From Minisyncoccota bacterium (GTDB lineage Bacteria; Patescibacteriota; Minisyncoccia; Phycocordibacterales; Phycocordibacteraceae): DNA of 64,000 bases. Below the pieces are notes generated by a model. The model had not been told where the DNA came from. It ran no database searches and worked only from the letters and a program-made list of their open reading frames with translations. A program made the translations under genes and the position numbers. The stretch lies in contig JALHQL010000004.1 of the NCBI GenBank assembly GCA_022841985.1, forward strand, positions 1,726 to 65,725. The letters run 5' to 3'. Shown here one piece after another: positions 7,523 through 55,540 of the stretch (position 1 is its first letter; each line of letters opens with the position of its first letter).

Positions 7523-8725
7523 ATGCGCCGCACACTTACCATCGTCTCTACCATAATAGTCCTCGTCGGGATCGGGACGGGAGTATATTTTTACTTCTTT
7601 GCGAATACCACAGGTGTCACAATCGCACCTCCTGAGGGAGGTGGTTTGCCGATAGCTGGGCAGGGGACAATGCCGATCACAGGAAATACTCCTGATACGG
7701 AAGCTCCAGTTGGTGCTCCCGTGTCAGTCTCTGCACGACTTGTGAAAATAAGTCCCGGACCAGTCGCACTTGGTGCGGTTGTCATTGACCATAAGGCGGT
7801 GAACGCAAGTTCTTCACCAGAAGTTGCTGTCTCCTACATCGAGCGACAAAGTGGCAATGTATTTTCCTATAAAGTTGGGGCCGCGACACTCACCCGTACT
7901 TCAAACAAGACCGTCCCTGGCATTCAGACGGCTTCATGGCTCCCTGACGGGTCACTCGCCTTCGTGCGCTACTTGTCGGGGACTGACTTTTCTACCATTA
8001 ATACGTATGCTCTTCCTTCAAACGGCTCGAATGGTTTTTTTCTACCCCAAAATCTTGCTGATGTAGCGGCTAGTCCGACAAGAGTCCTCACTCTCTCATC
8101 GGGCGTAAACGGATCGACTGTCTCACTCAGACGTATAGACGGCACCTCTCCCTCAACCGTATTTACAACACACCTCTCTGCGCTTCGATCTTCCTTTTCA
8201 GGAAAAAGTCAGTATCTCGTATTCACAAAACCTTCGATGACTCTTGCTGGCAATGCTTTTCTCATTGAGACTTCCGGCCGTTTCTCCCGTATTGCGGGAC
8301 CGCACAATGGTCTTGTAGCACTTGCGAGTCCGCTCGGGAAATGGATCCTTGTGAGTTTTGTACAAGAGGGTTCGATGCGTATGAACCTTATCAATACTGC
8401 GACAGCCGAGAGTATCCCTCTCCCTGTTGCGACCATCGCAGACAAATGCGTATGGACGGCCGATGATTCAGTTATCTATTGCGGCATTCCAGTAAATCCC
8501 CCCTCTGATTTTAATTATCCGGACGATTGGTACCAAGGAGCTGTGCCTTTCAATGATCGTCTATGGAAGATACAAGTTGATGGCCGTTATGCGCAACTGG
8601 TACTCGATTTTTCTGCAGAAACAAAAGATTCTCTTGATGCCGAGGCCCTTGCCATTAATCCCGCAAACACTGTCCTTGTATTCGTCAACAAGAACGATGG
8701 TTCTCTGTGGTCGTACTCACTGTGA
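7523..8725 (+). CDS. N-terminally membrane-anchored beta-propeller-like protein
   Basis: 400 aa; single N-terminal TM, repeated 'W/F-x-x-DGS' like blades (WLPDGSLAF, WTADDSVIY). Confidence 0.45.
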   Translation: MRRTLTIVSTIIVLVGIGTGVYFYFFANTTGVTIAPPEGGGLPIAGQGTMPITGNTPDTEAPVGAPVSVSARLVKISPGPVALGAVVIDHKAVNASSSPEVAVSYIERQSGNVFSYKVGAATLTRTSNKTVPGIQTASWLPDGSLAFVRYLSGTDFSTINTYALPSNGSNGFFLPQNLADVAASPTRVLTLSSGVNGSTVSLRRIDGTSPSTVFTTHLSALRSSFSGKSQYLVFTKPSMTLAGNAFLIETSGRFSRIAGPHNGLVALASPLGKWILVSFVQEGSMRMNLINTATAESIPLPVATIADKCVWTADDSVIYCGIPVNPPSDFNYPDDWYQGAVPFNDRLWKIQVDGRYAQLVLDFSAETKDSLDAEALAINPANTVLVFVNKNDGSLWSYSL

Positions 8726-38698: not shown

Positions 38699-38806
38699 AT
38701 TATATAGAGATGATATTGCAGGGCGTCTGTTTTTTTGGTACTGTCCGGTCGGATAGATGTTCGACGCAAAAATCAACACAACCTTAACTTTTGCAAGGAG
38801 GAAGAA

Positions 38807-40204
38807 ATGAAGAGATCTGTATTGGAGTTACAACATGTGACTCGCGGACTTCCACACGGTGGATTTGTGCTTGTTTTGAATACCGGAGCTATTATTGATC
38901 CGGAAGCTGAGGCGATGTTACAAGCCCTTCATTCACGTTCAGTCGGCGGTATTCGTGCGCATCTGAAGACTCTCGCAGAAAAAGGCCCCGAGAGGTTCAT
39001 GGAAAACTTCTACGTTGGATATGGACACAAATCAATCGGGGATTGTGGTACAGGAACGATATTTATTGAGGGCGTCTCGATGCTCGTTGCCAAAGCTATA
39101 CAAGATTGGCTCTTGTATTCTGGGCAAGAGGCGTCAACTCGGTATATCGATTTCTCGACACAGAGGTTTGTCGACCCAGTCGGTCTGCCAGGTTCTACGG
39201 AAATACTCGAAGCGTGGCGAAGTTTCTATTTGTCGTCACAAGAACCAATCCGCGCACATCTTCGAGGATGTTTCCCAATAAAAACAGGGGAAGATGTGAA
39301 AGTGTATGACAAAGCGATCAACGCACGAAGCTTTGACATCTTGCGTGGATTTCTTCCGGCAGGTGCCTCCACAAATCTCGCTTGGCATACTAATCTGCGC
39401 CAGGCAGCGGATCACATACTGATGCTGCGCCAGCATCCGCTTCGTGAGGTTAAGATTGTTGCCGAGGCAATGGAAAGCGCTCTGCAAGAAACATTTCCAA
39501 GTTCATTTGGGCAAAAGCGTTACGAATCGACCGAGGAATACCATGCGTTATGGATGCGAGAAGGGTATTACTTCTCTGGCACAAAACATCATGATGTTTG
39601 TTTGCCTGGCAGGGTTGGTGCAGCGCGTAAGAAAGTAGTGTTGACGAGGGACTCAATTGATAGAAGTCTCTTGCCTGAATACGCGCACTTCCTCTTGTTG
39701 CGACCGGAAAAAACGGAATTACCAAAACAGATATCAGAATGCGGGACGATGCAATTCGAGTTTCTTATCGATTTCGGTTCATTCCGGGACATTCAGCGGC
39801 ATCGTTCTGTGATACAGCGTATGCCACTTCTTTCAAGTAGTTTCGGCATGCATTCGTGGTATCTCGAATCACTTCCGGACAAATTAAGACAGGAGGCAGA
39901 AAATCTTGTACGTCGACAACTTATAGCTATAGACACGCTCCCGCAAGACAAGTTCGTACGGCAGTACTATTTCCCCATGGGAATGTGTGTACCATGTCGT
40001 TTGACGGGTGACTTGCCGGCGCTTGTGTATGTGGTTGAACGACGCGCACAAAGAGACGTCCACCCAACGCTTCACGAGGTCGCGCTTGAGGTGGCAGACG
40101 AACTTATTACACAGTTTGGCAGCAATGGTCTTGCGTTGAGTATCGATCGTGAGAAAGGACGGTTTGATACGAAACGTGGACTTCAGGACATTGTGCAGAA
40201 ATAG
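38807..40204 (+). CDS. long-form flavin-dependent thymidylate synthase (ThyX)-like protein
   Basis: 466 aa from ATG after RBS aaggagg; 'DIQRHRSVIQRMPLLSS' fits ThyX RHR-x7-8-S signature; long forms (~500 aa) known e.g. in Chlamydia; operon context with dcd-like, tmk, glyA. Confidence 0.4.
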   Translation: MKRSVLELQHVTRGLPHGGFVLVLNTGAIIDPEAEAMLQALHSRSVGGIRAHLKTLAEKGPERFMENFYVGYGHKSIGDCGTGTIFIEGVSMLVAKAIQDWLLYSGQEASTRYIDFSTQRFVDPVGLPGSTEILEAWRSFYLSSQEPIRAHLRGCFPIKTGEDVKVYDKAINARSFDILRGFLPAGASTNLAWHTNLRQAADHILMLRQHPLREVKIVAEAMESALQETFPSSFGQKRYESTEEYHALWMREGYYFSGTKHHDVCLPGRVGAARKKVVLTRDSIDRSLLPEYAHFLLLRPEKTELPKQISECGTMQFEFLIDFGSFRDIQRHRSVIQRMPLLSSSFGMHSWYLESLPDKLRQEAENLVRRQLIAIDTLPQDKFVRQYYFPMGMCVPCRLTGDLPALVYVVERRAQRDVHPTLHEVALEVADELITQFGSNGLALSIDREKGRFDTKRGLQDIVQK

Positions 40205-40246: not shown

Positions 40247-40329
40247 AGTTGCCTTTTACTTTCAGAGCGCGTAGAGTTTCGTTGGACTGTACAACACAAC
40301 AACCAAGAAACCACAAAAAGGAGAGCATC

Positions 40330-41427
40330 ATGCCGAAATCAAAGACAGGAGTTCTTCCAAAACAAGATCTTCGAGGCTTGCTCGTGCCAGGATACATCGG
40401 GGACGTGACGGAAAAGTATTTAAACCCGGCGTCAATCGACATGCCTCTTTCAGACGAGGCCTACCGAGTCGAGGCAATCTTCCTCCCTCAGGAAAATGAG
40501 GCCGTTCGTGATCTCTTGCCGTCTCTCGGTGCTACGAAGCATAATCTCGACAATCCTCTGGAGGTTGGCGTGCCGTATCTGATTCGTGTTGTTGACAGAT
40601 GGAAACTGCCAAGCATGGTCTACGGATACGCAAATCCGAAGTCATCAACCGGCCGAATTGGATTCTTTTGTCGAACGGTGGCTGACAAAGTCAGTATGTA
40701 TGATGCAATTCCAACTCCAGGATGGAGCGGAGAGATCTGGATGCTTGTTCGTCCGGATTTTATGCCGGTCCTGGTTACACCCGGATTAGCATTGTCGCAG
40801 TTGCGGCTGTTCGATGGGAAATCCTTTCTCGATAGTTTGCACAGCGAATTGGCAATAACAAAATCCGGGCTTCTTTTTACCGAAGACGGAAGAAAATTGT
40901 CACTTTCTGAAACTCATCGGCACGATGACTCGTTCGTACTGACCATCCATGTTGGCGAAATGATGGGGTGGGAGTGCTGGGGAACTCGAAAAGTTCTCGA
41001 TATGAATAAAAAGCACTTCTATACTCCGGAGGATTTTTTCACGCCACTTCAGGTATCAAATGGTAAGTTCACGCTAAGAAAGAGCTGTTTCTATGTTCTC
41101 ACGACCAAAGAACGGATCATGGTACCGCCGTATCTCTCGGCGGAACTGCGCGCAATCGAACCGAGGTTTGGCGAGTTTCGGTCACATGCGGCCGGTTACA
41201 TCGATCCTGGCTGGGGGTACGGCGTGAACGGCGAAGCATGCGGACGTCCAATCACCCTTGAGGTGACGACACAGGAAGACATGCTCATACGAGACGGGCA
41301 AACTATTGCCCGAATCCGTTATGAGCATATGAAGGATATTCCTGAAACTGCGTACGACCAAGCAGCGTCGCACTATACGGAGCAGCGAACAGCGCAACTC
41401 TCGAAACACTTCAAGGTAGTTGGGTAA
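40330..41427 (+). CDS. long-form 2'-deoxycytidine 5'-triphosphate deaminase-like protein (dUTPase/Dcd fold)
   Basis: 365 aa; 'GYANPKSSTGRIGFF' resembles Dcd/dUTPase motif III; size fits DCD long-form family (~360-370 aa). Confidence 0.5.
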   Translation: MPKSKTGVLPKQDLRGLLVPGYIGDVTEKYLNPASIDMPLSDEAYRVEAIFLPQENEAVRDLLPSLGATKHNLDNPLEVGVPYLIRVVDRWKLPSMVYGYANPKSSTGRIGFFCRTVADKVSMYDAIPTPGWSGEIWMLVRPDFMPVLVTPGLALSQLRLFDGKSFLDSLHSELAITKSGLLFTEDGRKLSLSETHRHDDSFVLTIHVGEMMGWECWGTRKVLDMNKKHFYTPEDFFTPLQVSNGKFTLRKSCFYVLTTKERIMVPPYLSAELRAIEPRFGEFRSHAAGYIDPGWGYGVNGEACGRPITLEVTTQEDMLIRDGQTIARIRYEHMKDIPETAYDQAASHYTEQRTAQLSKHFKVVG

Positions 41428-41440
41428 TTTTGGTTTTTGG

Positions 41441-41478
41441 GCCCGCGACGATTCTCATCGTCGCGGGCTTCTCTTTTT
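41441..41478 (+). terminator. rho-independent terminator
   Basis: gcccgcgacga-ttctca-tcgtcgcgggc + ttctcttttt. Confidence 0.7.
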
Positions 41479-41541
41479 ATAATTTTATGTAAGGATGTAC
41501 CCGGACTTGTTCATAAAATAAAACTAAGGAGGGCTGTCATT

Positions 41542-42186
41542 ATGATGCAAGGACAGTACATTGTATTTGATGGCATGGATGGCTCGGGAAAAGGTACGCA
41601 GATTGAGTTCTTGCAAAAGAAATTCATCGGCACAGTGGTTTTCACTCGTGAACCAGGCGGCACACCATTTGCCGAAGAAATACGGAAAATCGTCCGCGAC
41701 AATCCTCTCGCTGGAAAATCGACCCCACTCAATAACTTCCTGCTATTCTGGGCGGCTCGTGAAGAGTTGTTGCACAACCTTATCGTCCCAACACGTAAGT
41801 CTGGCAAGCATGTATTTTCAGATCGAGGCGATTCATCAACATTTGCATATCAAATTTATGGTGAAGCGAACAATGGGTTGATCACTCCATTTTTCGAAAT
41901 GAGAAAACTCGTTTTCGAAAAGGCTGGACGTCAACCACCACATCTCTATATTGTGTTCGACTTACCAGCGGAAGTCGCACACAGTCGTGTCATGGCTGCC
42001 GGCGGTAGTAAAAGAAATCACTTCGACACTCGAAAGCTCGACTACTATGAACGGGTGCGTTGCGGGTTTCGTAATTTTAGTGCCCATATTCAAAACGTTG
42101 TTCTCGTGAATGCGGAAGGATCGCCAGAAGCGGTTCACGAGTCTGTTCTCAATGTTCTTGCTGAGAGAGGCATTCTCCCCAAATGA
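41542..42186 (+). CDS. tmk: thymidylate kinase
   Basis: 'MMQGQYIVFDGMDGSGKGTQ' P-loop, 'TREPGGT', DRxxxS 'SDRGDSST' LID. Confidence 0.85.
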   Translation: MMQGQYIVFDGMDGSGKGTQIEFLQKKFIGTVVFTREPGGTPFAEEIRKIVRDNPLAGKSTPLNNFLLFWAAREELLHNLIVPTRKSGKHVFSDRGDSSTFAYQIYGEANNGLITPFFEMRKLVFEKAGRQPPHLYIVFDLPAEVAHSRVMAAGGSKRNHFDTRKLDYYERVRCGFRNFSAHIQNVVLVNAEGSPEAVHESVLNVLAERGILPK

Positions 42187-42204
42187 GTGATTCCAACACA
42201 AAAT

Positions 42205-42237
42205 ACCGACGCACTTGTAGTGCGTCGGTTCTGTTTT
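42205..42237 (+). terminator. rho-independent terminator
   Basis: accgacgcac-ttgta-gtgcgtcggt + tctgtttt. Confidence 0.65.
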
Positions 42238-42256
42238 CAGTGATACAATCACGCAC

Positions 42257-43522
42257 GTGAATTCCTACCATCATATAGAAAAGGAGGATCCCGAGCTTTT
42301 CACTGCGCTCGACGGGGAAGAGAATCGGCAGGCGGAGGGCCTGGAGCTTATTCCCTCTGAGAATTATGTGTCGCGAGCTGTAAAGGAAGCAATGGCGTCC
42401 TCGCTTACGAATAAGTATGCGGAAGGGTATCCCGGGAAGCGTTACTACGGGGGACAGGAATTTACTGATGCGGTCGAAACACTCGCCATCGAACGCGCGA
42501 AAAAACTATTTGGTGCGGCATATGCGAACGTGCAACCGCTCGGCGGTGCGAACGCGAATATCGCCATGTATATGGCACTTCTTGAACCGGGGGACACGGT
42601 GCTCGGCATGGATCTCTCGCATGGCGGGCATCTGACTCATGGTCACCCAGTAACTTACCTCACCAAGATTTTCAATTTTGTACGGTACGGAATGAAAGAT
42701 GTTGAAACGGGAGAGATAGATTATGACGACATGTGTCGCGTCGCAAAAGAGGTGAGGCCAAAAATAATCCTCGCAGGGTTCTCAGCGTATCCGCGTGAGC
42801 TTGAGTATGTGAAATTCATCGAGATTGCTCGCGAAGTTGGTGCGCTTGCGGTGATGGACATTGCGCACATTGCCGGACTTATTGCGGGAAAGGTGGCCAA
42901 GAATCCGTTCGACTATGGATTTGATGTCATGACCACCACGACGCACAAGACGCTGCGCGGTCCGCGCGGCGGCATGATTCTCACCAGAGAGTCTGAAGAT
43001 ATTGCGAAAAAAATAGATAAAGCAGTCTTCCCGGGATTTCAGGGCGGCCCGCACATGCATCAAATAGCGGCAAAGGCAGTTTCATTCCATGAAGCGCTTC
43101 ACCCCTCATTCGCACTTTATGCAAAACAGATCATCGCAAATACGCACGCGATGGAAAAAGTATTTAAGGCACATGCTATACGCATGATCACGGGCGGCTC
43201 TGACAATCACTTGCTCCTACTCGATGCGTGGAAGTCATTTGGCATTTCTGGTGGGGAAGCAGAGTCTCTCTTGGATCGTGCAGGCATCACACTCAACAAA
43301 AATACGATTGCAGATGATACACGCAAACCGATGGATCCTTCGGGCATTCGTTTGGGTACTCCTGCGATAACGACGCGCGGTCTTCGCGAACCCGAATCAG
43401 CACGGGTGGCCTCGCTCATGGTCGAGATTCTCACAAAACGCGATGATATTACTGTCGAGCACGTAAAAAAAGAGGTGCGGAATCTCGCACTCGCGCACCC
43501 TATTCCAGAATCATTTATATAA
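42257..43522 (+). CDS. glyA: serine hydroxymethyltransferase (GTG start)
   Basis: 421 aa; 'LIPSENYVSRAV', 'GGHLTHGH', PLP-Lys region 'TTTTHKTLRGPRGG'. Confidence 0.9.
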   Translation: MNSYHHIEKEDPELFTALDGEENRQAEGLELIPSENYVSRAVKEAMASSLTNKYAEGYPGKRYYGGQEFTDAVETLAIERAKKLFGAAYANVQPLGGANANIAMYMALLEPGDTVLGMDLSHGGHLTHGHPVTYLTKIFNFVRYGMKDVETGEIDYDDMCRVAKEVRPKIILAGFSAYPRELEYVKFIEIAREVGALAVMDIAHIAGLIAGKVAKNPFDYGFDVMTTTTHKTLRGPRGGMILTRESEDIAKKIDKAVFPGFQGGPHMHQIAAKAVSFHEALHPSFALYAKQIIANTHAMEKVFKAHAIRMITGGSDNHLLLLDAWKSFGISGGEAESLLDRAGITLNKNTIADDTRKPMDPSGIRLGTPAITTRGLREPESARVASLMVEILTKRDDITVEHVKKEVRNLALAHPIPESFI

Positions 43523-43543: not shown

Positions 43544-45196
43544 ATGGAGCAGCAGATCAGAAAAGCTGTCAGCGAGGCGCTTAAGACTTTGAATGCCGGC
43601 GAAGTTCCGTTTTCGGTTGAAAGACCGACTGATCTCGTGCATGGCGATTACATGACAAACGCTGCGCTTGTGGCAGCAAAGGTTATTGGTAAAAACCCTC
43701 ATGACGTTGCTGAGCAAATTGCCGATTCTCTTACGAAGTCTCTTGGTGGATCTGTGGGTCGGATTGAAGTAGCCGGTCCTGGTTTTGTAAATATTGCTCT
43801 TTCAATAGAAGCTATTGCGCTTGCTGTTAGAGAAGCTGGGGCGCAGGGTGCGGAATGGGGAAAAGGGTCTGGAGATGTAGGACAGCGAGTAGTTATTGAA
43901 TACACCGACCCGAATCCGTTTAAGGAAATGCATATTGGGCACCTCATGAGCAATGTTGTGGGGGAGTCACTCGCGCGGCTCATTGGTAATGAAGGAGCGA
44001 CAGTTATTCGTGCTAATTATCAGGGCGACGTTGGTCCCCATGTAGCTAAGGCTATATGGGGCTTGCAGAAGGCAGGCATTACCGAACCAGTGACCGCAAA
44101 AGAGATTGGAGAGGCATACGCAGAAGGTTCTCGTGCATACGAAGAGTCTCCAGAAGCGAAAGCCGAAATCGATGTATTGAACCAGGCAATCTACATGGGC
44201 AATGATAAGAACGTCATGGAATTTTGGCGAAAGGGCCGCGACATATCGCTTGCGGCTTTCGAGCGACTCTACAAAATTCTCGGAACACATTTCGATTATT
44301 ATTTTTTTGAAAGTGAGACCGCCGAATCCGGAACTCGCATAGTGAAGGATGGTCTCGAAAAGGGAATTTTTGAGGAAAGCGAAGGCGCGGTGATTTACCC
44401 GGGCGAGAAGAAAGGTCTCCACACGCTCGTATTTATTACGAGCAGAGGCACACCGACGTACGAGGCGAAAGATATTGGACTCGCATTTCTAAAAGAGGAA
44501 CGTATTCAAAGCGATCGTTCGATTATCGTGACGGCTGCCGAGCAGATAGGTCATTTCAAAATAGTATTTGCTGCTCTTGAAGATATTGCTCCTACGATTG
44601 CACAGAAAACTACACACGTGCCGCACGGGTTCCTGCGTCTTTCGACAGGGAAGATGTCCTCGCGGGCCGGAAATGTGATTACCGCAGAAGGACTTATTCG
44701 GGAGGTTGTTAGAAAAGCGAGTGAGAAAAACGAAGATCCGCTCATTGCGGAGCAGGTTGCGCTCGGGGCGATCAAGTACATGATTCTGCGTCAAGCTCCT
44801 GGATCAGATATTATCTTCGACGAAGAGAAATCACTTTCGCTTGAAGGTGACTCCGGGCCGTATCTGCAGTACGCACTTGTGCGTGCGCGGTCGGTATTGG
44901 CAGCAGCAGAGAAGGGTAGAACGCCCGTTGGTGGCGCTTCCGCGGCTCCGTATGTACTGGAGAGAATTATTTTGCATTTCCCAGAGGTCGCCGCTCGTGC
45001 TGCGCGCGAGCTCTCTCCAAATCTTCTTGCAAGTTATCTTACCGAGCTTGCAGGAGAGTGGAATTCTTTCTACGCGCAGGAGCGCATTATTGGCGGCGAT
45101 TACGAAGCGCACAAACTCATGCTTGCACGAGCGTTTATAAATACTATGAAGAACGGTCTTACTGTTCTCGGTATTCCCACGCCGGAAAGGATGTGA
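43544..45196 (+). CDS. argS: arginine--tRNA ligase
   Basis: 550 aa; 'EYTDPNPFKEMHIGHLMSNVVGE' HIGH region; ArgRS N-terminal add-1 and C-terminal DALR-like helices. Confidence 0.85.
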   Translation: MEQQIRKAVSEALKTLNAGEVPFSVERPTDLVHGDYMTNAALVAAKVIGKNPHDVAEQIADSLTKSLGGSVGRIEVAGPGFVNIALSIEAIALAVREAGAQGAEWGKGSGDVGQRVVIEYTDPNPFKEMHIGHLMSNVVGESLARLIGNEGATVIRANYQGDVGPHVAKAIWGLQKAGITEPVTAKEIGEAYAEGSRAYEESPEAKAEIDVLNQAIYMGNDKNVMEFWRKGRDISLAAFERLYKILGTHFDYYFFESETAESGTRIVKDGLEKGIFEESEGAVIYPGEKKGLHTLVFITSRGTPTYEAKDIGLAFLKEERIQSDRSIIVTAAEQIGHFKIVFAALEDIAPTIAQKTTHVPHGFLRLSTGKMSSRAGNVITAEGLIREVVRKASEKNEDPLIAEQVALGAIKYMILRQAPGSDIIFDEEKSLSLEGDSGPYLQYALVRARSVLAAAEKGRTPVGGASAAPYVLERIILHFPEVAARAARELSPNLLASYLTELAGEWNSFYAQERIIGGDYEAHKLMLARAFINTMKNGLTVLGIPTPERM

Positions 45197-45225
45197 TTGA
45201 GCACAATCACCTACTGGGTGAAAAG

Positions 45226-45262
45226 TTGACAGTTGCGAGTAGATGTATCGCGTGTTAAAATT
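45226..45262 (+). promoter_or_regulatory. sigma70-like promoter
   Basis: TTGACA - 17/18 nt - TGTTAAAAT (extended -10). Confidence 0.4.
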
Positions 45263-45325
45263 TTTTGCGGACTGCTCAGATCAGATGCACAATTCCGTGC
45301 ATCTTGAAATGTGGGGAGGTTAAGC

Positions 45326-45781
45326 ATGGCGAAAGTGTCACTGCGAACAAGGAGAATTCCTCGTAAAAAGAAGCCGGTGCCGCAGGTATCTTCAAATGGT
45401 CACCTGCATGGGAAGCCGAATGGCCAAGGAACTGCACAGCGTGTGGGAGAGGCTATAAGGCTTGGCGGCTGCTCCTCGGTAAGAGAATTCTTTCGTGTAG
45501 CAAGATGCACATTTCCAGATCATGCTCCGGAACAATGCGTCACAACAGACGATCAGCGAAGTTGGATGGAAAGGGAGCTAAGTTGGTTTGAATCTCTGGG
45601 GAGTGGGAATCCCGTTCCAAGAGGTTACAAGATTCCGGAATGTGTTCGTCTTCTTGCCGATAGGGTGCTCGAAAGCAAGAGTCGGAGAAAGTGCTTTGGG
45701 GAGTTGAGTCTTTTGAACGAAAGAAGGCTTATGCGGGCGTCATTTTCGTCAGGTCCTGCTGAGGCAGTACAGACCTCCTAG
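45326..45781 (+). CDS. hypothetical basic protein (GC-rich gene; coding status uncertain)
   Basis: 151 aa from 'MAKVSLRTRRIPRKKK'; no motif recognised; region noticeably GC-richer than flanks; followed by hairpin cggctgcagg-aataaatc-cctgcagccg (45790-45817). Confidence 0.3.
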   Translation: MAKVSLRTRRIPRKKKPVPQVSSNGHLHGKPNGQGTAQRVGEAIRLGGCSSVREFFRVARCTFPDHAPEQCVTTDDQRSWMERELSWFESLGSGNPVPRGYKIPECVRLLADRVLESKSRRKCFGELSLLNERRLMRASFSSGPAEAVQTS

Positions 45782-45856
45782 TGCGATTGCGGCTGCAGGA
45801 ATAAATCCCTGCAGCCGTTTCCATTTTTACCTTGTAAACGATACTATAAGGAAATT

Positions 45857-48800
45857 ATGGGAGTTCCGGAAAAGTCAGAGGCGACAAAACGGGAGGAGTC
45901 CATCCTCGCGTTTTGGGAGCGCGACCGCATTTTCGAAAAAACGCTGCAGAAGAAATCACCGAAGGGCGACTTTGTTTTTTATGAGGGGCCGCCAACGGCC
46001 AATGGAAAGCCGGGTATTCATCATCTTGAAAGTCGTGCTTTTAAAGACGCTATTCCACGCTATAAGACGATGCGCGGCTATCGTGTGAATCGTCGCGCTG
46101 GTTGGGATACTCACGGGCTTCCTGTAGAACTTCAAATCGAGAAAGAATTAGGTTTTTCTGGCAAGAAAGACATCGAGCAGTACGGCATCGCCGCGTTTAA
46201 CAAGAAGTGTCGAGAGAGTGTCTTTACCTACATCGATCTTTGGGAGAAGTTTACCAAACGCATCGGCTACTGGGTCGATGAGAGCAAAGCTTACTTTACG
46301 TTTGATAGCGCATATATGGAGGTGGTGTGGCATCTCTTTGCTCAGACAGCAAAGGACGGACGACTGTATAAAGATTATAGAATTGTGCCGTGGTGTCCGC
46401 GCTGTGGGACGGCGCTTTCTTCCCACGAACTTGCTCAGGGCTATGCGGATGTAAAGGATCTAACTATTATCGCTAGGTTTGAATTGGCAGATGAGCCAGG
46501 GACGTATCTGCTTGCGTGGACGACAACCCCATGGACTCTTCCAGGGAATGTCGCGCTTGCGGTTAATTCGGACTTGACATACGCGAAATATACGTGGGAG
46601 GGAGAATCTTTTATCATGGCAAAAGATCTTGCACATAAATACCCAGGACAGTTAGTTGAGGAGTTTTTGGGAAAAAATCTTGTCGGGAAGAGATATAAAC
46701 CCTTGTATACTTTTGCAAAAGATCTTGCAGCTGCAAGTGAGATGTCAAAATTTGAGAAGGCGTTTCAAGTGTATGCGGCAGATTTTGTAACAACCGAAGA
46801 CGGCACGGGGATCGTACATATCGCGCCGATGTATGGACAGGACGATTTTGAACTCGGAAATAAAAACGGATTGCCGAAAGTGCACCTTGTTTCTCCGGAA
46901 GGGAAATTTGTTACGGGCACCGGCCCTTTAGAAGGAATGATGGTTACCGAAGAGGGGACGTCGGTCGAAATATTAAAAGATCTCCAGGTGCGAAGTCTAG
47001 TATTCAAAAAAGAGTCATACGCACACACGTATCCGTTTTGCTGGCGCTGCAAGACACGGCTCATCTATTACGCACGTGACTCGTGGTATATCCGCATGCA
47101 GGATTTGCGGGCAAAGCTCGTAGCTGAGAATAAAAAGATTCATTGGGAACCGGAATATATACGCGAAGGTCGCATGGGTGAGTGGCTTTCAAATGCAAAA
47201 GATTGGGCGATAAGTCGAGAGCGGTATTGGGGTACGCCGCTTCCGGTGTGGCGCAGTGCAGAGGGAAACGAACAGCTTGTTATTGGTTCGGTTGATGAGT
47301 TGAAAAAATATACGAAGAAATCCGGTAATACGTATTTCGTCATGCGGCATGGCGAAGCTGAGAATAATGTGAAGAGGGTCGTAAGTTCAGACCCTTCTGT
47401 CAGCAAGTTAACAGAGATGGGGAGAGGTCAGGTCTATGCATCCGCCGCCTCCCTTAAGAGAACTGGTATCGATGTGATATTTGCGTCTCCATTTCTTCGC
47501 ACGAAGGAAACTGCAGAAATTGTCGCCGCTGAACTTGGTGTTGATAAGACATCAATTGTTTTTGATGAGCGTTTGCGTGAGCTTGGTTTCGGTCAGCTTT
47601 CCGGGAAATCGTACGATGAATTTCTTGCCTATCGTGTAAAGCATAACCCAGGTCCTGCGGAGCCTATGATGGATGGAGAAAGTTATGAAGATGTGAAGCG
47701 TCGTTTCGGGGAGTTCATTTACGAGATAGAAAAGTCAGAAAAAAATAAGCGCATTCTTATTGTGACCCACACCGTGGGTATCGAGGCTCTTACGGCGGTT
47801 GCGCAAGGCGGGGATGCGGATGTTTTTTTAGAGATTGGAAGAACTTCTCATTTCAAAATGGGCGGTGTCCATGATTTGAATTTCGTTTCATTGCCGCACA
47901 ATGAGGAGTATGAGCTCGATCTGCACAGGCCGTATATCGATGATGTGGTGCTCGTATCCGAGAAGGGGACTGAGTTACGACGGGTTTCTGAGGTTATGGA
48001 TGTTTGGTTTGACTCCGGAGCAATGCCGTTTGCACAGGCGGCAAAGGATCGAAAGAATGAGTCGCTTGAAACGTTCTTAAAGAAAATTGAGTACCCCGCT
48101 GACTTCATTAGTGAAGCTATTGATCAAACTCGTGGGTGGTTCTATACACTTCTTGCTGTGGGAACTCTTTCAGGACGAGGCGCCGCTTTCAAGAATGTTA
48201 TTTCCCTCGGGCACTTGCTCGACGCTGCTGGACAGAAGATGAGCAAGTCGAAGGGTAATGTAGTTGATCCATGGGTAGAGATGGAGAGGTGGGGCGCTGA
48301 TACGATTCGTTTTTGGATGTACAGCGTTACTCAGCCAGGCGATTCGAAAAATTACGATGAGAAGACGGTAAAGGAGTCTGCAAAGGTTCTTTCATGGGTC
48401 GAGAACAGTGCAAAGTTTTTTGAGCTCTTCAAAGAGGTGTCCAAAAAACAAAGCCCAGTGTCTGTTATGGATCAGTGGATGATAGTGCGCACAAATCAAA
48501 CGATTTCAGTCGTTACGAAATCTATGGATGCATACCAGCCATTTGAAGCTACGCGAGCGATAGCGAACTTAGCGGAAGATCTTTCTCAGTGGTACGTACG
48601 GCGTGTTCGTGACCGTGTGCGTGAGGGTGATAGTGCTGCAATTGCGACCCTCCAGGGCGTACTTCGTAATTTGGCTCTCATGCTTGCGCCTTTTGCTCCT
48701 TTTTTGGCGGAAGATATTTTTGCAAGGGTTAAAGAAGAGGGTGATCCTGTCAGTGTGCATCTTGCTCACTGGCCTCGAGGATCCGAGACATTTTGGCAGA

Positions 48801-49216
48801 AATTATTTGCCCAGGGGAGGAAAGGGGTTTTGCTTGAGGATATGGCGCGAGTGCGTTCTCTTGCATCAGAAGCGCTTCAAATGCGTCAAAAGTCGGGTAT
48901 TAAAGTGCGCCAGCCCCTCGCGACTCTCACGGTTCCAGACGCTCTTTCGCCAGAGCTTGCACACATTCTTGCTGAAGAGGTGAATGTAAAAGAAGTTGTT
49001 GTGGGTACAGAGCTTGTACTCGATACGAATCTCACGCCGGAGCTTATTAAGGAGGGTGACGAGCGAGATTTTGCGCGCGCAGTCGCCGAGGCACGCAAGG
49101 CAGAAGGATTTTCTCCGAAAGATAAGGCGCGTGCGGAAATGACTATAGAAGGGAAACATTCCGTCACACTCTCAACTGGGGTGACTCGGTTCAATCTCAT
49201 TCGCGATGCGACATAA
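45857..49216 (+). CDS. ileS: isoleucine--tRNA ligase with inserted histidine-phosphatase (PGAM-like) domain
   Basis: 1119 aa; '[13 protein letters not shown]' (HIGH-like), 'WDTHGLPVE', 'KMSKSKGN'; ~190-aa insert (nt ~47325-47900) with '[11 protein letters not shown]', '[11 protein letters not shown]', 'IVTHTVGI' = histidine phosphatase superfamily motifs, between 'SVDELKKY' and 'DLHRPYIDD'. Confidence 0.9.
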
Positions 49217-49775
49217 ATACGAAACCCGCGGCATTATACTTTCCCGAACGCCGTCCGGAGAAGCGAATGCATTTGTGACTCTTCTTACCCCGACTCTTGG
49301 GTTGGTTCGTGCTCGTGCGCAGAGCGTGCGTCGTTCTGGCGCCAAACTCTCCGCTGCGCTCGTAACATTTGCCGAAAGTGACTTGGTGCTAGTGCGCGGG
49401 AAAGAAGGGTGGCGCATTGTCGGGGCGGTTCTTTCAGAAAATTGGTTTATGAAAATGGAGCAGACCGCGTCGCGTCGCAGAGCAGCGCGTGTCTCGGGAC
49501 TTCTAGTACGACTAGTAGCAGGGGAAGCGCATGATCCGGAGCTTTTCCCGATCATCAGAAGCTTTTTAGAAGCACTTGTGACGCTGCCCGAAGATACACA
49601 CGAAGCTGTCGAGATGCTTGCTGCGCTTCGTGCGCTTGCAGCGCTCGGGCTTGATTCAGGAGAGATTCCTGGCGAGGTATCTGCGTTTACTGCGCCACTC
49701 CTCACTTCGGTCGAAGCTGAGCGTACAAGTTACGTGGCGCGCATCAATCGCGGTATTACCGCTTCAGGTCTTTGA
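49206..49775 (+). CDS. DNA repair protein RecO-like (short)
   Basis: 189 aa; '[28 protein letters not shown]' OB-fold N-terminus typical of RecO; lacks zinc-finger region. Confidence 0.5.
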
Positions 49776-54106: not shown

Positions 54107-55540
54107 ATGAGTGCGCGCTACATTACCACCACGTTACCCTATGTGAATGCGGATCCGCACCTGGGTCATGCGCTCGAATTTGTAGAGGCAGACTTTCTTG
54201 CTCGCACATTGCGCGTACAGAATACTGAAGTTTTTTTTAACATCGGCACCGACGAGCATGGCGCTAAAGTCGCGCAGAAAGCAAAGGAAGAAGGGAAGGA
54301 TCCTCACGCATATGTTGATGAGTACGCCAAGCGTTTCAAGGCTTTTGCTGATCAGTTGGATATTTCTTACGACTCATTTATTCGCACTACTGACCCCGTA
54401 CATATTGCTGCAGCTCAGGCGTTCTGGGCGCGCTGTTTCGATGCTGGCGATATTTACAAAGCTTCCTATAAGGTGAAGTATTGTACCGGCTGTGAGCTTG
54501 AAAAAACCGATTCAGAACTTACTCAGGGTCGCTGTTTACTACATCCGAATCTAAATATAGAGTCGCGTGAAGAGGAAAATTACTATTTCAGATTTTCAAA
54601 GTATCAAGAGGCGCTGCTTGCGCACTATGCGAAACAGCAGGATTTTGTGATGCCCGAAGAGCGCATGCGAGAGCTCACGTCTTTTGTTACTGCAGGGCTG
54701 AAGGATTTCAGCGTTTCTCGCCGGAGAGAAAAACTCGCGTGGGGTGTGCCTGTGCCAAATGATCCGGAGCAAGTCATGTATGTCTGGTTTGATGCGCTAG
54801 TGAACTATGTTTCAGCAATTGGCTGGCCACAGAATGAGCAACGTTTTTTGAAATGGTGGCCAGTTACGCAGCTTGCAGGGAAGGATAACTTGCGCCAGCA
54901 GGCGGCAATGTGGCAGGCGATGCTGCTGTCGGCAGGATTCCCGTTCTCGCGAAATATATTCATACACGGATTCATTACCTCAGGCGGCCAGAAGATGAGT
55001 AAGTCATTGGGGAATGTCATACATCCGCTCGAACTTGTAGAAAAGTATGGAGTCGATGCTGTCCGGTACGTTCTTTTGCGGCATGTGAGCCATGTCGAGG
55101 ATTCAGATCTTACTCTTACCGCAATCCACGAACACTATACTGCTCATCTCGCCAATGGTCTGGGGAATCTTGTCGCGCGCGTGATGACACTCGCTGAACA
55201 GCATTTTCCTGCTCCTATTGAACTCGGACCGGAGGAGGCGTCAATAGAACCATTATTTCTAGAAAAGATAGAGGAATTTCGTTTCAATGAAGCAATGGAT
55301 ATTATATTCGAGCATGTGAACAAGGGAGATGTGTATATGACCGAGCGAACCCCTTACAAAAAAATAAAAAGTGAAAATAAGAGTGAACAAGAAGAGGCAA
55401 AAAAAGATATAGAAAAACTGGTCCGACATCTTGCAAAAATAGCGGTACATCTCACCTTCGCAATGCCAAGTACTGCGGACAGTATTCTTAATGCTGTTCG
55501 TTCAAATAAAAAACCAACCAATCTTTTCCCGCGCATATGA
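54107..55540 (+). CDS. metG: methionine--tRNA ligase
   Basis: 'TTLPYVNADPHLGHALE' HLGH, 'CTGCELEK' zinc knuckle, 'KMSKSLGN'. Confidence 0.9.
   Translation: MSARYITTTLPYVNADPHLGHALEFVEADFLARTLRVQNTEVFFNIGTDEHGAKVAQKAKEEGKDPHAYVDEYAKRFKAFADQLDISYDSFIRTTDPVHIAAAQAFWARCFDAGDIYKASYKVKYCTGCELEKTDSELTQGRCLLHPNLNIESREEENYYFRFSKYQEALLAHYAKQQDFVMPEERMRELTSFVTAGLKDFSVSRRREKLAWGVPVPNDPEQVMYVWFDALVNYVSAIGWPQNEQRFLKWWPVTQLAGKDNLRQQAAMWQAMLLSAGFPFSRNIFIHGFITSGGQKMSKSLGNVIHPLELVEKYGVDAVRYVLLRHVSHVEDSDLTLTAIHEHYTAHLANGLGNLVARVMTLAEQHFPAPIELGPEEASIEPLFLEKIEEFRFNEAMDIIFEHVNKGDVYMTERTPYKKIKSENKSEQEEAKKDIEKLVRHLAKIAVHLTFAMPSTADSILNAVRSNKKPTNLFPRI

Follow-up and report, generated by a model that had tools for sequence, protein, structure and literature searches.

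Few enzymes are as conserved as the aminoacyl-tRNA synthetases, and the bacterial ones rarely carry extra catalytic domains; we know of no described synthetase with a catalytic domain inside the connective peptide of its own catalytic domain. Here we analyse the ileS gene in a 64,000-nucleotide stretch of a Minisyncoccota bacterium (Patescibacteriota; contig JALHQL010000004.1), hereafter the window, which encodes a type-2 isoleucyl-tRNA synthetase (IleRS2) with an embedded histidine phosphatase domain. The described type-2, eukaryote-like bacterial enzymes (PMC10485003; structures 8c8u-8c8w and 1ile) share with the window protein a HUP/Rossmann core that is split by the connective peptides CP1 (editing) and CP2, the KMSKS loop, the anticodon-binding domain and the type-2 C-terminal subdomains. 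The catalytic core of the P. megaterium enzyme (PmIleRS2) is formed by residues 40-168 and 513-632, with CP1, which contains the editing domain, and CP2 in between (Brkic et al., 2023, PMC10485003); CP2 and CP3 have been named in yeast IleRS (PMC11685878). None of the described IleRS2 enzymes has an enzyme domain of about 195 amino acids in its zinc knuckle, and the window protein also lacks the four cysteines of that knuckle.

Accessory catalytic domains on synthetases and other housekeeping enzymes are a known theme. NCBIfam curates a family of bacterial IleRS with an extra catalytic domain (NF040702); there the extra domain is a GNAT, and the window protein is no member, scoring 293 bits against a cutoff of 1999. 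In mycobacterial RNase HI-CobC (RnhC/MSMEG_4305/Rv2228c) a nucleic-acid enzyme and a CobC-like His_Phos_1 domain share one polypeptide chain; the two domains are functionally dissociated in vivo, and fixation of the fusion has been attributed to drift (PMC7466739). In that protein, which is restricted to Actinomycetales, the domains are fused end to end through a highly variable linker, whereas the phosphatase studied here is an internal insert with conserved junctions in a synthetase host. Mycobacterial MutT1 joins a Nudix domain to a C-terminal RHG domain (PMC11784022), and Patescibacteria have both domain types in or beside IleRS. The comparison with MutT1 yields only 21 bits against a cutoff of 475, however, the host protein is a different one, and the Nudix and His_Phos inserts of Patescibacteria occupy different IleRS lineages and sites.

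In the window, ileS (45857-49216; this and all features below lie on the plus strand) is an unbroken reading frame of 1119 codons, with neither frameshifts nor internal stops. Alignment to 8c8w matched residues 8-486 to chain residues 9-478 and residues 682-1109 to chain residues 481-908, and the roughly 195 residues between them (487-681) occupy the place of about two residues in PmIleRS2. This insert (47315-47899), as delimited by the PDB alignment, comprises an N-terminal linker KKSG, a complete His_Phos_1 domain and a C-terminal linker VSLPH. An initial annotation, made from the letters alone, had placed an in-frame insertion of about 190 amino acids at 47325-47900. The insertion was confirmed by the alignment and the span proved correct to within about 10 nt, but the flanking sequence blocks, which had been expected 20-40 amino acids apart in other IleRS, are nearly adjacent in insert-less IleRS2. 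The motifs that had been quoted are where they were said to be: PVWRS...ELKKY at residues 463-485, RHGEAENN at 497-504 (nt 47345-47368), an 11-residue motif at 544-554, IVTHTVGI at 635-642 and DLHRPYIDD at 688-696, with the catalytic histidines H498 and H638 among them. A profile search, which that annotation had proposed, returned PF00300 (His_Phos_1) at residues 494-657 (E=6.9e-33; 114.4 bits with a gathering cutoff of 21.7), splitting the Pfam domain tRNA-synt_1 (PF00133), which spans residues 16-488 on the N-terminal side. The GC content is flat over both junctions (0.46-0.49).

The same architecture recurs widely. PF00300 is present in all of the 120 top full-length matches, which are labelled Parcubacteria, Paceibacterota, Kaiserbacteria, Minisyncoccia or Patescibacteria; the carrier proteins are named only 'class I tRNA ligase family protein' at NCBI and 'isoleucyl-tRNA synthetase' at JGI. 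When GTDB was scanned at one genome per species with an alignment of the insert and both junctions as the query, at least 587 genomes were matched via IleRS patterns. The best 80 matches span the entire query at 37-61% identity, and among these carriers are Paceibacteria, Nomurabacteria, Zambryskibacteria, Adlerbacteria and Wolfebacteria. The check for the same insert in related genomes, which the initial annotation had proposed, thus found it in all 120 nearest homologues and in at least 80 GTDB species. A phmmer search with the insert against 1.84 billion cluster representatives (50% identity) found 999 proteins at E<=1e-10, and 92 of the best 150 of these are IleRS, full length or fragments, with no other synthetase among them. 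The exhaustive search was needed to reveal this embedded majority; a word-indexed search with the insert alone gave 332 candidates and no full-length IleRS carriers. A metagenome scan seeded by the free-standing family of related phosphatases recovered 80 loci, 67 with the insert in ileS and 13 with a free gene. That an assembly chimera or gene-calling artefact explains the architecture was considered and rejected, and we give it practically no chance: the frame is continuous, the composition is uniform, and the same junctions, with conserved junction peptides, occur in over 200 independent sequences that come from different projects and assemblers (NCBI, JGI, ENA and Logan). The insertion is real, ancient and common to hundreds of species of Patescibacteria (Paceibacteria/Parcubacteria).

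The residues expected of a histidine phosphatase are conserved in the insert. In an alignment of the 120 nearest homologues (65-100% identical overall, each 1086-1152 amino acids), R497 and H498 of the R497-H498-G499 motif (47345-47353) are present in 120 of 120 sequences and G499 in 117. By alignment with R9 and H10 of E. coli dPGM, for which the reference sequence was validated as identical to PDB 1E58, these are the phosphate-binding arginine and the predicted nucleophilic histidine. The second phosphate-pocket arginine, R548 (47498-47500), and the second histidine of the catalytic pocket, H638 (47768-47770), are likewise invariant and align with R61 and H183 of 1E58. The predicted general acid/base E575 (47579-47581), aligned with E88, is Glu in 118 sequences and Asp in two. 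R616 is also found in all 120 homologues, and several glycines as well as S544 and P545 are essentially invariant. The mean identity to the window protein is 48% for the insert and 75% for the IleRS body, and an invariant catalytic set on a background of 48% identity is the pattern of purifying selection from which catalytic competence is predicted; the free-standing relatives retain the same catalytic residues. The suggestion that the domain might fold independently agrees with an AF2 model of the insert alone (pLDDT 94, pTM 0.91; alignment input of 70 free-standing relatives), and the insert is also the best-predicted part of a full-length model (pTM 0.51) in which the Rossmann core is poorly modelled. 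Foldseek matched the insert with probability 1.00 to many members of the histidine phosphatase superfamily (TM 0.73-0.81), including at TM 0.76-0.81 the phosphoserine phosphatase PspA, the riboflavin-pathway HFP, the mycobacterial glucosyl-3-phosphoglycerate phosphatase GpgP, PhoE, CobC and the monomeric PGAM of S. pombe (1fzt, 211 amino acids); PspA was matched as 4ij6 (TM 0.81) and PhoE as 1h2e. From conservation and model together, the insert is a complete and apparently active branch-1 histidine phosphatase domain.

Among described enzymes, the closest are the short branch-1 phosphatases PhoE/YhfR (1h2e), PspA (4ij5), GpgP Rv2419c (4pz9), CobC and HFP (9mmh). They share the fold (TM 0.76-0.81), the R-H-G…R…E…H residues, a length of about 190-210 amino acids and the absence of the dPGM-specific segment. 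They differ in being only 22-30% identical and in being free-standing and mostly dimeric rather than embedded. The best family score was that of NF038349, short archaeal dPGM (101 bits, cutoff 225; 101-118 for insert and free relatives together), followed by PRK07238, bifunctional RNase H/acid phosphatase (90.5, cutoff 326). Scores also fell below the cutoffs of CobC TIGR03162 (75.6, cutoff 162.9), GpmB PRK03482 (65.4, cutoff 261), PspA NF045917 (65, cutoff 350), SixA TIGR00249 (39.6, cutoff 74.5) and dPGM TIGR01258 (26.5, cutoff 81.7), with PRK14115 and others lower.

These scores bear on the idea that the insert is a glycolytic phosphoglycerate mutase (PGM) that only seems to be missing in some Parcubacteria because it is buried in a gene annotated as ileS, an idea that we consider rather improbable. 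PGM has been reported absent from several shallow Parcubacteria clades, and divergent forms were suspected to have been missed (Jaffe et al., 2020, PMC7304191); NF038349 is the best curated match of the insert and its free relatives, the Foldseek matches include S. pombe 1fzt, and some of the free relatives are labelled 'probable phosphoglycerate mutase' in their source databases. Set against this, the NF038349 scores stay well short of 225 bits, and the nearest structures are those of the phosphatases PspA, HFP, GpgP and PhoE. Comparison with 1E58 also led us to reject canonical dPGM identity at the level of residues: K99, R115/R116 with their segment of about 30 amino acids, N185 and the C-terminal capping tail, all features of dPGM substrate handling, are absent from 120 of 120 inserts and 17 of 17 free relatives. 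Because these mutase-specific residues are missing, the insert is classified by its sequence as a PhoE/PspA/CobC-like, phosphatase-type member of the superfamily and not as a canonical mutase.

The insertion point, between residues equivalent to 478 and 481 of PmIleRS2, lies in the last connective-peptide element (CP2/CP3), shortly ahead of the restart of the core at DVWFDSG (PmIleRS2 residue 513). PmIleRS2 and insert-less IleRS of Patescibacteria have a zinc knuckle at this place, made of a CxxC pair and a CxC/CxxC pair. The former first half of the knuckle in the window protein (residues 466-471, RSAEGN; 47252-47269) has lost the CxxC ligands of the equivalent ECEGCQ in PmIleRS2, and the former second half (residues 700-706, VSEKGTE; 47954-47974) has lost the CxC ligands of the equivalent TCPVCSGE. 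Both cysteine pairs are kept in 50 of the 107 insert-bearing IleRS from fetched loci, both are lost in 55, including the window protein, and one is kept in two. The kept pairs (for example KCSCGG) flank the insert, one on each side. With a Cys pair on each flank in 50 of 107 carriers, the insertion lies inside the knuckle, and the phosphatase is, as judged from these alignments, looped out from within it; the sub-clade of the window would then have lost its zinc ligands only after the insertion.

The junctions themselves follow a consensus among 100 diverse carriers. On the N-terminal side it reads K-K-S-G-N-x-Y (N in 96 of 100, Y or F in all), and on the C-terminal side F-x-P-L-P-H-N-x-x-Y-E-L-D (P in 94, H in 83, N in 84, E in 87 and D in 100). 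Conserved junctions and the loss of all four knuckle cysteines in the window's clade, where the domain may hold the subdomain together, would fit a non-catalytic structural or regulatory module that either replaces the zinc-knuckle scaffold or senses a phospho-ligand and tunes IleRS. We hold this to be very unlikely, given that the invariant catalytic set on its background of 48% identity is a signature of retained catalysis, that zinc ligands and insert occur together in half of the carriers and that the free-standing relatives hold the same catalytic residues.

Information on the origin of the insert came from its free-standing relatives. The nearest of these are about 186-196 amino acids long and 35-45% identical to the insert, and at several loci the free gene lies between argS and ileS (L001-L003, L004, L005, L008, L094, L102, L111, L114 and L115). 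At L001-L003 the order is AA-kinase, argS, His_Phos_1 and ileS, the last beginning 3 nt later. At L008 it is argS, a 61-amino acid open reading frame (ORF), His_Phos_1, AOX, an insert-less ileS of 1021 amino acids with an intact zinc knuckle, recO and a large surface protein. The order in the window (argS, ileS, recO and a DUF11 protein) matches the layout of L008. Five of the 13 free genes from the metagenome scan stand beside ileS (L094, L102, L111, L114 and L115), six are on contigs too short for a judgement, and two have no ileS within 8 kb (L156 and L164); together with L007, the latter two are the free-standing homologues with adequate flanks that lie away from ileS. In all 80 of the GTDB carrier loci no free His_Phos copy was found within 6 kb on either side, the sole signal being inside ileS, and argS was found upstream in 60 and recO downstream in 67 of them. 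Both ends of the insert (C-terminal …GGVHDLNF) have their counterparts in the termini of the free proteins (…NNTYFVLRHGEAESN… and …KGELIELN), which argues that the whole protein was captured. In a neighbour-joining tree without support values, and thus only indicative, the inserts group in a single clade, and next to it stands the ileS-adjacent P0123 group.

Since insert-less relatives have a free homologue between argS and ileS and no free copy lies within 6 kb in the 80 carriers, capture of the neighbouring gene is most likely the origin of the insert, and is the most economical reading of these sequences. A single early event in the lineage would have placed the ancestral neighbour gene, or a copy of it, in ileS, and the free copy would have been lost afterwards. 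No pseudogene remnant of a free phosphatase or of a small ORF of 47-61 amino acids was found in the 660-nt gap between argS and ileS in the window (45197-45856). This gap contains a 156-codon ORF with a GTG start (45311-45781) that has no Pfam match; the gap has no Rfam match and, apart from its last ~60 nt, no similarity in relatives. Those last ~60 nt are conserved with L013 and L016 and include a strong 11-bp hairpin followed by a T-run (45789-45818) directly upstream of the ileS start, which could serve as a leader element or terminate an upstream unit. The synteny partner argS itself occupies 43544-45196. Downstream, a recO-like gene (49206-49775; RecO_N, E=2e-12) overlaps the ileS stop by 11 nt (49206-49216); its product is short (189 amino acids), with RecO_N as the sole domain detected, and the overlap suggests translational coupling in an argS-ileS-recO operon.

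Two further observations concern the relatives. The insert-less IleRS encoded next to free phosphatase genes at L008 (8618-11683), L102 and L111 are about 40% identical to the window IleRS and have HYGH together with KLSKK, KMSKK or no recognisable KMSKS; by this divergence, Patescibacteria harbour at least two quite divergent IleRS lineages. P0122, a 226-amino acid free His_Phos_1 protein from a 2.2-kb JGI contig, is 45% identical to the insert and has an unrelated N-terminus. Its C-terminus, FKFVPLHVNEDFELIKV, is the C-terminal junction of the insert plus the first IleRS residues, and P0122 may stem from a broken ileS, from gene mis-calling or from a copy that left ileS again.

The synthetase around the insert was examined in the same way. 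Its score against the NCBIfam ileS equivalog TIGR00392 is 819.5 bits (cutoff 621.4), and the closest PDB structures are the IleRS2 8c8u-w (P. megaterium) and 1ile (T. thermophilus), at E of about 1e-210. Scores of about 705-714 bits with the IleRS2 8c8w and 1ile, compared with about 300-314 bits, less than half, with the IleRS1 8c9f and 1ffy, identify it as a type-2 enzyme. The N-terminal part (residues 1-486, 45857-47314; 8c8w residues 9-478) holds the CP1/editing domain as well as the first halves of the catalytic core and of the connective-peptide knuckle. Within it, residues 195-393 match the isolated IleRS editing domain 1wk8 (E=5e-33), WTTTPWT is invariant among carriers, and the editing-domain motifs and the first zinc site (C180/C183/C395/C398) are conserved in carriers. 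The C-terminal part (residues 682-1119, 47900-49213; 8c8w residues 481-908) holds the remainder of the knuckle, the second core half from DVWFDSG, KMSKS, and the anticodon-binding and C-terminal domains. The KMSKS loop (residues 794-798, 48236-48250) is invariant among carriers in each of K794, M795, S796, K797 and S798, and Pfam places Anticodon_1 (PF08264) at residues 872-1022, with DUF5915 also matched. With KMSKS, the editing motifs, the first zinc site and the anticodon-binding domain conserved, the IleRS part looks fully functional. Neither a second IleRS nor a second His_Phos was found in the 64-kb window, where the sole other class I synthetase match is MetRS at 54107-55540.

In place of the canonical class I HIGH motif the window protein has a swapped G-I-H-H (residues 53-56, 46013-46024; PGIHHLES), of which H56 is invariant among carriers. 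The G/AXHH motif occurs only in IleRS2, is functional and raises the Ki for mupirocin up to 1000-fold (PMC10485003). Among insert-bearing IleRS from fetched loci we counted G/AxHH in 44, HxGH in 30 and other motifs in three (HYGS, HFGT). That the insert tracks the GXHH motif was therefore rejected; it is found in both HxGH and G/AxHH enzymes, so insert and motif are independent. Mupirocin contains no phosphate. This weighs against a function in immunity, by which the domain would dephosphorylate or destroy an antibiotic or adenylate analogue directed at IleRS, a proposal of the initial annotation that we now regard as most improbable. It has in its favour that the host IleRS carries the GXHH motif tied to mupirocin hyper-resistance (PMC10485003), which suggests past antibiotic pressure. 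Against it stand the equal presence of the insert in HxGH-type IleRS, its apparent descent from a housekeeping-type free gene in the conserved argS-ileS-recO operon, and its fixation over hundreds of species, unlike resistance traits, which are usually patchy. The role on a signalling nucleotide that had been offered alongside found no support either: the gene origin is of the housekeeping type, no feature points to adenylate analogues, and fusions in this lineage are promiscuous.

We favour the reading of a bifunctional protein in which the phosphatase is a passenger that keeps its ancestral stand-alone job, to which we assign somewhat better than even confidence; a coupling to adenylate or tRNA chemistry ranks second. 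The window gene would encode a working type-2 IleRS together with a catalytically competent phosphatase looped out of the CP2/CP3 zinc knuckle. The latter would hydrolyse phosphomonoesters via a phospho-His498 intermediate, with the phosphate held by R497, R548 and H638 and with E575 as the general acid. It would be a small-molecule phosphatase of the PhoE/PspA/CobC type, doing the same job as the free-standing enzyme, and its embedding in an essential, constitutively expressed gene would guarantee its expression in a streamlined genome. The phosphatase probably does not serve aminoacylation itself. By analogy, the dissociation of the two domains of mycobacterial RNase HI-CobC would support such independent function.

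The range of other fusions in these organisms is also relevant to this bifunctional reading. Fusion partners of the t6A-synthesis enzyme Sua5/TsaC in Patescibacteria (P0259, P0347-P0349 and other fusion proteins) include MGMT (PF01035), by far the commonest, as well as TruB, a 2H-type CPDase, 3-methyladenine glycosylase, GNAT and NUDIX; His_Phos_1 is joined to Sua5/TsaC in only four clusters. The IleRS of locus L004 (8066-11515, 1149 amino acids) has a NUDIX insert with an intact Nudix box at residues 327-452 of its CP1/editing domain (E=6e-18), and the IleRS-with-GNAT family NF040702 has been mentioned above. The streamlined genomes of Patescibacteria seem to make a habit of fusing small housekeeping enzymes promiscuously to essential translation genes, and this weakens the Rosetta-stone argument that fused domains share a function. 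A common site for the NUDIX insert of L004 and the phosphatase was considered and rejected, the former being in CP1. At L004 a free 170-amino acid NUDIX gene (7548-8060) lies immediately upstream of ileS and a free His_Phos_1 gene farther upstream; no closeness was detectable between the inserted NUDIX and this adjacent free one. P0270 (416 amino acids) combines a His_Phos_1 of the same subfamily with a weak match to an AlkB-like 2OG-Fe(II) oxygenase (27 bits, gathering cutoff 31.2), which, if real, would be another nucleic-acid-repair partner. In the window, a ThyX-like ORF (38735-40204, 489 amino acids) has a Thy1 domain at residues 75-256 only and about 230 C-terminal residues without assignment, and may be another fusion or extension; it is part of a nucleotide-metabolism cluster with dCTP deaminase, thymidylate kinase and SHMT (40249-43522).

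Several observations weigh against a mere passenger. The short junction peptides are strongly conserved over 100 deeply diverged carriers, unlike the variable linker of the drift-fixed mycobacterial fusion, a contrast that points to a fixed pose on IleRS and perhaps to functional integration. Some IleRS have more than one copy of the phosphatase: two His_Phos_1 domains are present in the same IleRS subdomain at L166 (2905-7428) and L167 (3-4064) and in P0234 and P0239, the fragment P0203 has four, and P0258 and P0319 are listed among the multi-copy IleRS. At L166 the R-H…R…E…H residues persist in each of the two copies, which flank a DLH-like motif, an arrangement that suggests a second insertion and not a simple tandem duplication. 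The presence of two to four copies within IleRS argues for selection on the phosphatase in this specific context. In addition, the same phosphatase subfamily is fused in P0259 to Sua5/TsaC, another enzyme of tRNA biology that converts ATP to acyl-AMP and pyrophosphate (PPi), and the IleRS and Sua5/TsaC fusions could share a substrate. The insert falls below every curated equivalog cutoff of NCBIfam, and the full-length AF2 model is too poor to show where the phosphatase active site points. Tandem-double phosphatases also exist as free proteins (P0274 and P0337).

Much of this would fit a phosphatase coupled to IleRS or tRNA chemistry, acting on PPi, AMP/ADP or Ap4A-type by-products or removing tRNA 3'-phosphates or 2',3'-cyclic phosphates before charging, which we consider unlikely, yet the least so of the alternatives. 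Neighbourhood and fusion tie the same phosphatase to ileS in many lineages, the short conserved junctions imply a fixed pose, and the module has been multiplied to two to four copies inside some IleRS. In its close relative P0259 the fusion partner is Sua5/TsaC, an enzyme that, like IleRS, produces an acyl-adenylate and PPi and that acts on ANN-decoding tRNAs. The alternative IleRS insert, NUDIX, is a nucleotide pyrophosphohydrolase, and mycobacterial MutT1 joins Nudix and RHG histidine phosphatase domains on nucleotide and phosphoprotein substrates (PMC11784022). Conversely, the partners of Sua5 include DNA-repair enzymes (MGMT, glycosylase), so that fusion is an unreliable guide to a shared substrate; the NUDIX insert is at a different IleRS site, the free-standing homologues at L007, L156 and L164 are not near ileS, and the full-length model (pTM 0.51) gives no docking geometry. 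It further counts against coupling that, no branch-1 histidine phosphatase is known to hydrolyse PPi or RNA 3'-phosphates. The proposition that the phosphatase is the working partner of the synthetase, clearing PPi or nucleotide polyphosphates or healing tRNA 3' ends as a novel accessory activity that the related Sua5/TsaC fusion would have too, or in a second version is the hidden PGM of Parcubacteria, likewise seems to us doubtful, at a slightly lower level, and the bifunctional protein with an independent phosphatase remains the reading that we prefer.

Full-text searches, which included insertions in aminoacyl-tRNA synthetases of CPR bacteria, found no description of a histidine phosphatase in IleRS or in any aminoacyl-tRNA synthetase of Patescibacteria. 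The feature is undescribed rather than unseen, as its architecture can be read from the precomputed Pfam strings of public sequences. What is unusual here is the internal insertion into a connective peptide, the intact enzyme as passenger, the traceable origin from a neighbouring gene and the fixation across a large uncultivated lineage. The phosphatase entered an essential synthetase before the carrier lineages split from one another, and metabolic reconstructions will miss it because the carrier proteins are named only as tRNA ligase or synthetase. Were the two activities coupled, tRNA charging would have an auxiliary reaction of a new kind. Were they independent, the protein would be a natural example of a streamlined genome that has buried a captured neighbouring housekeeping enzyme in an essential gene, and would mean that the zinc-knuckle tip of IleRS tolerates insertions of one to four whole domains, a property that would be useful in protein engineering.

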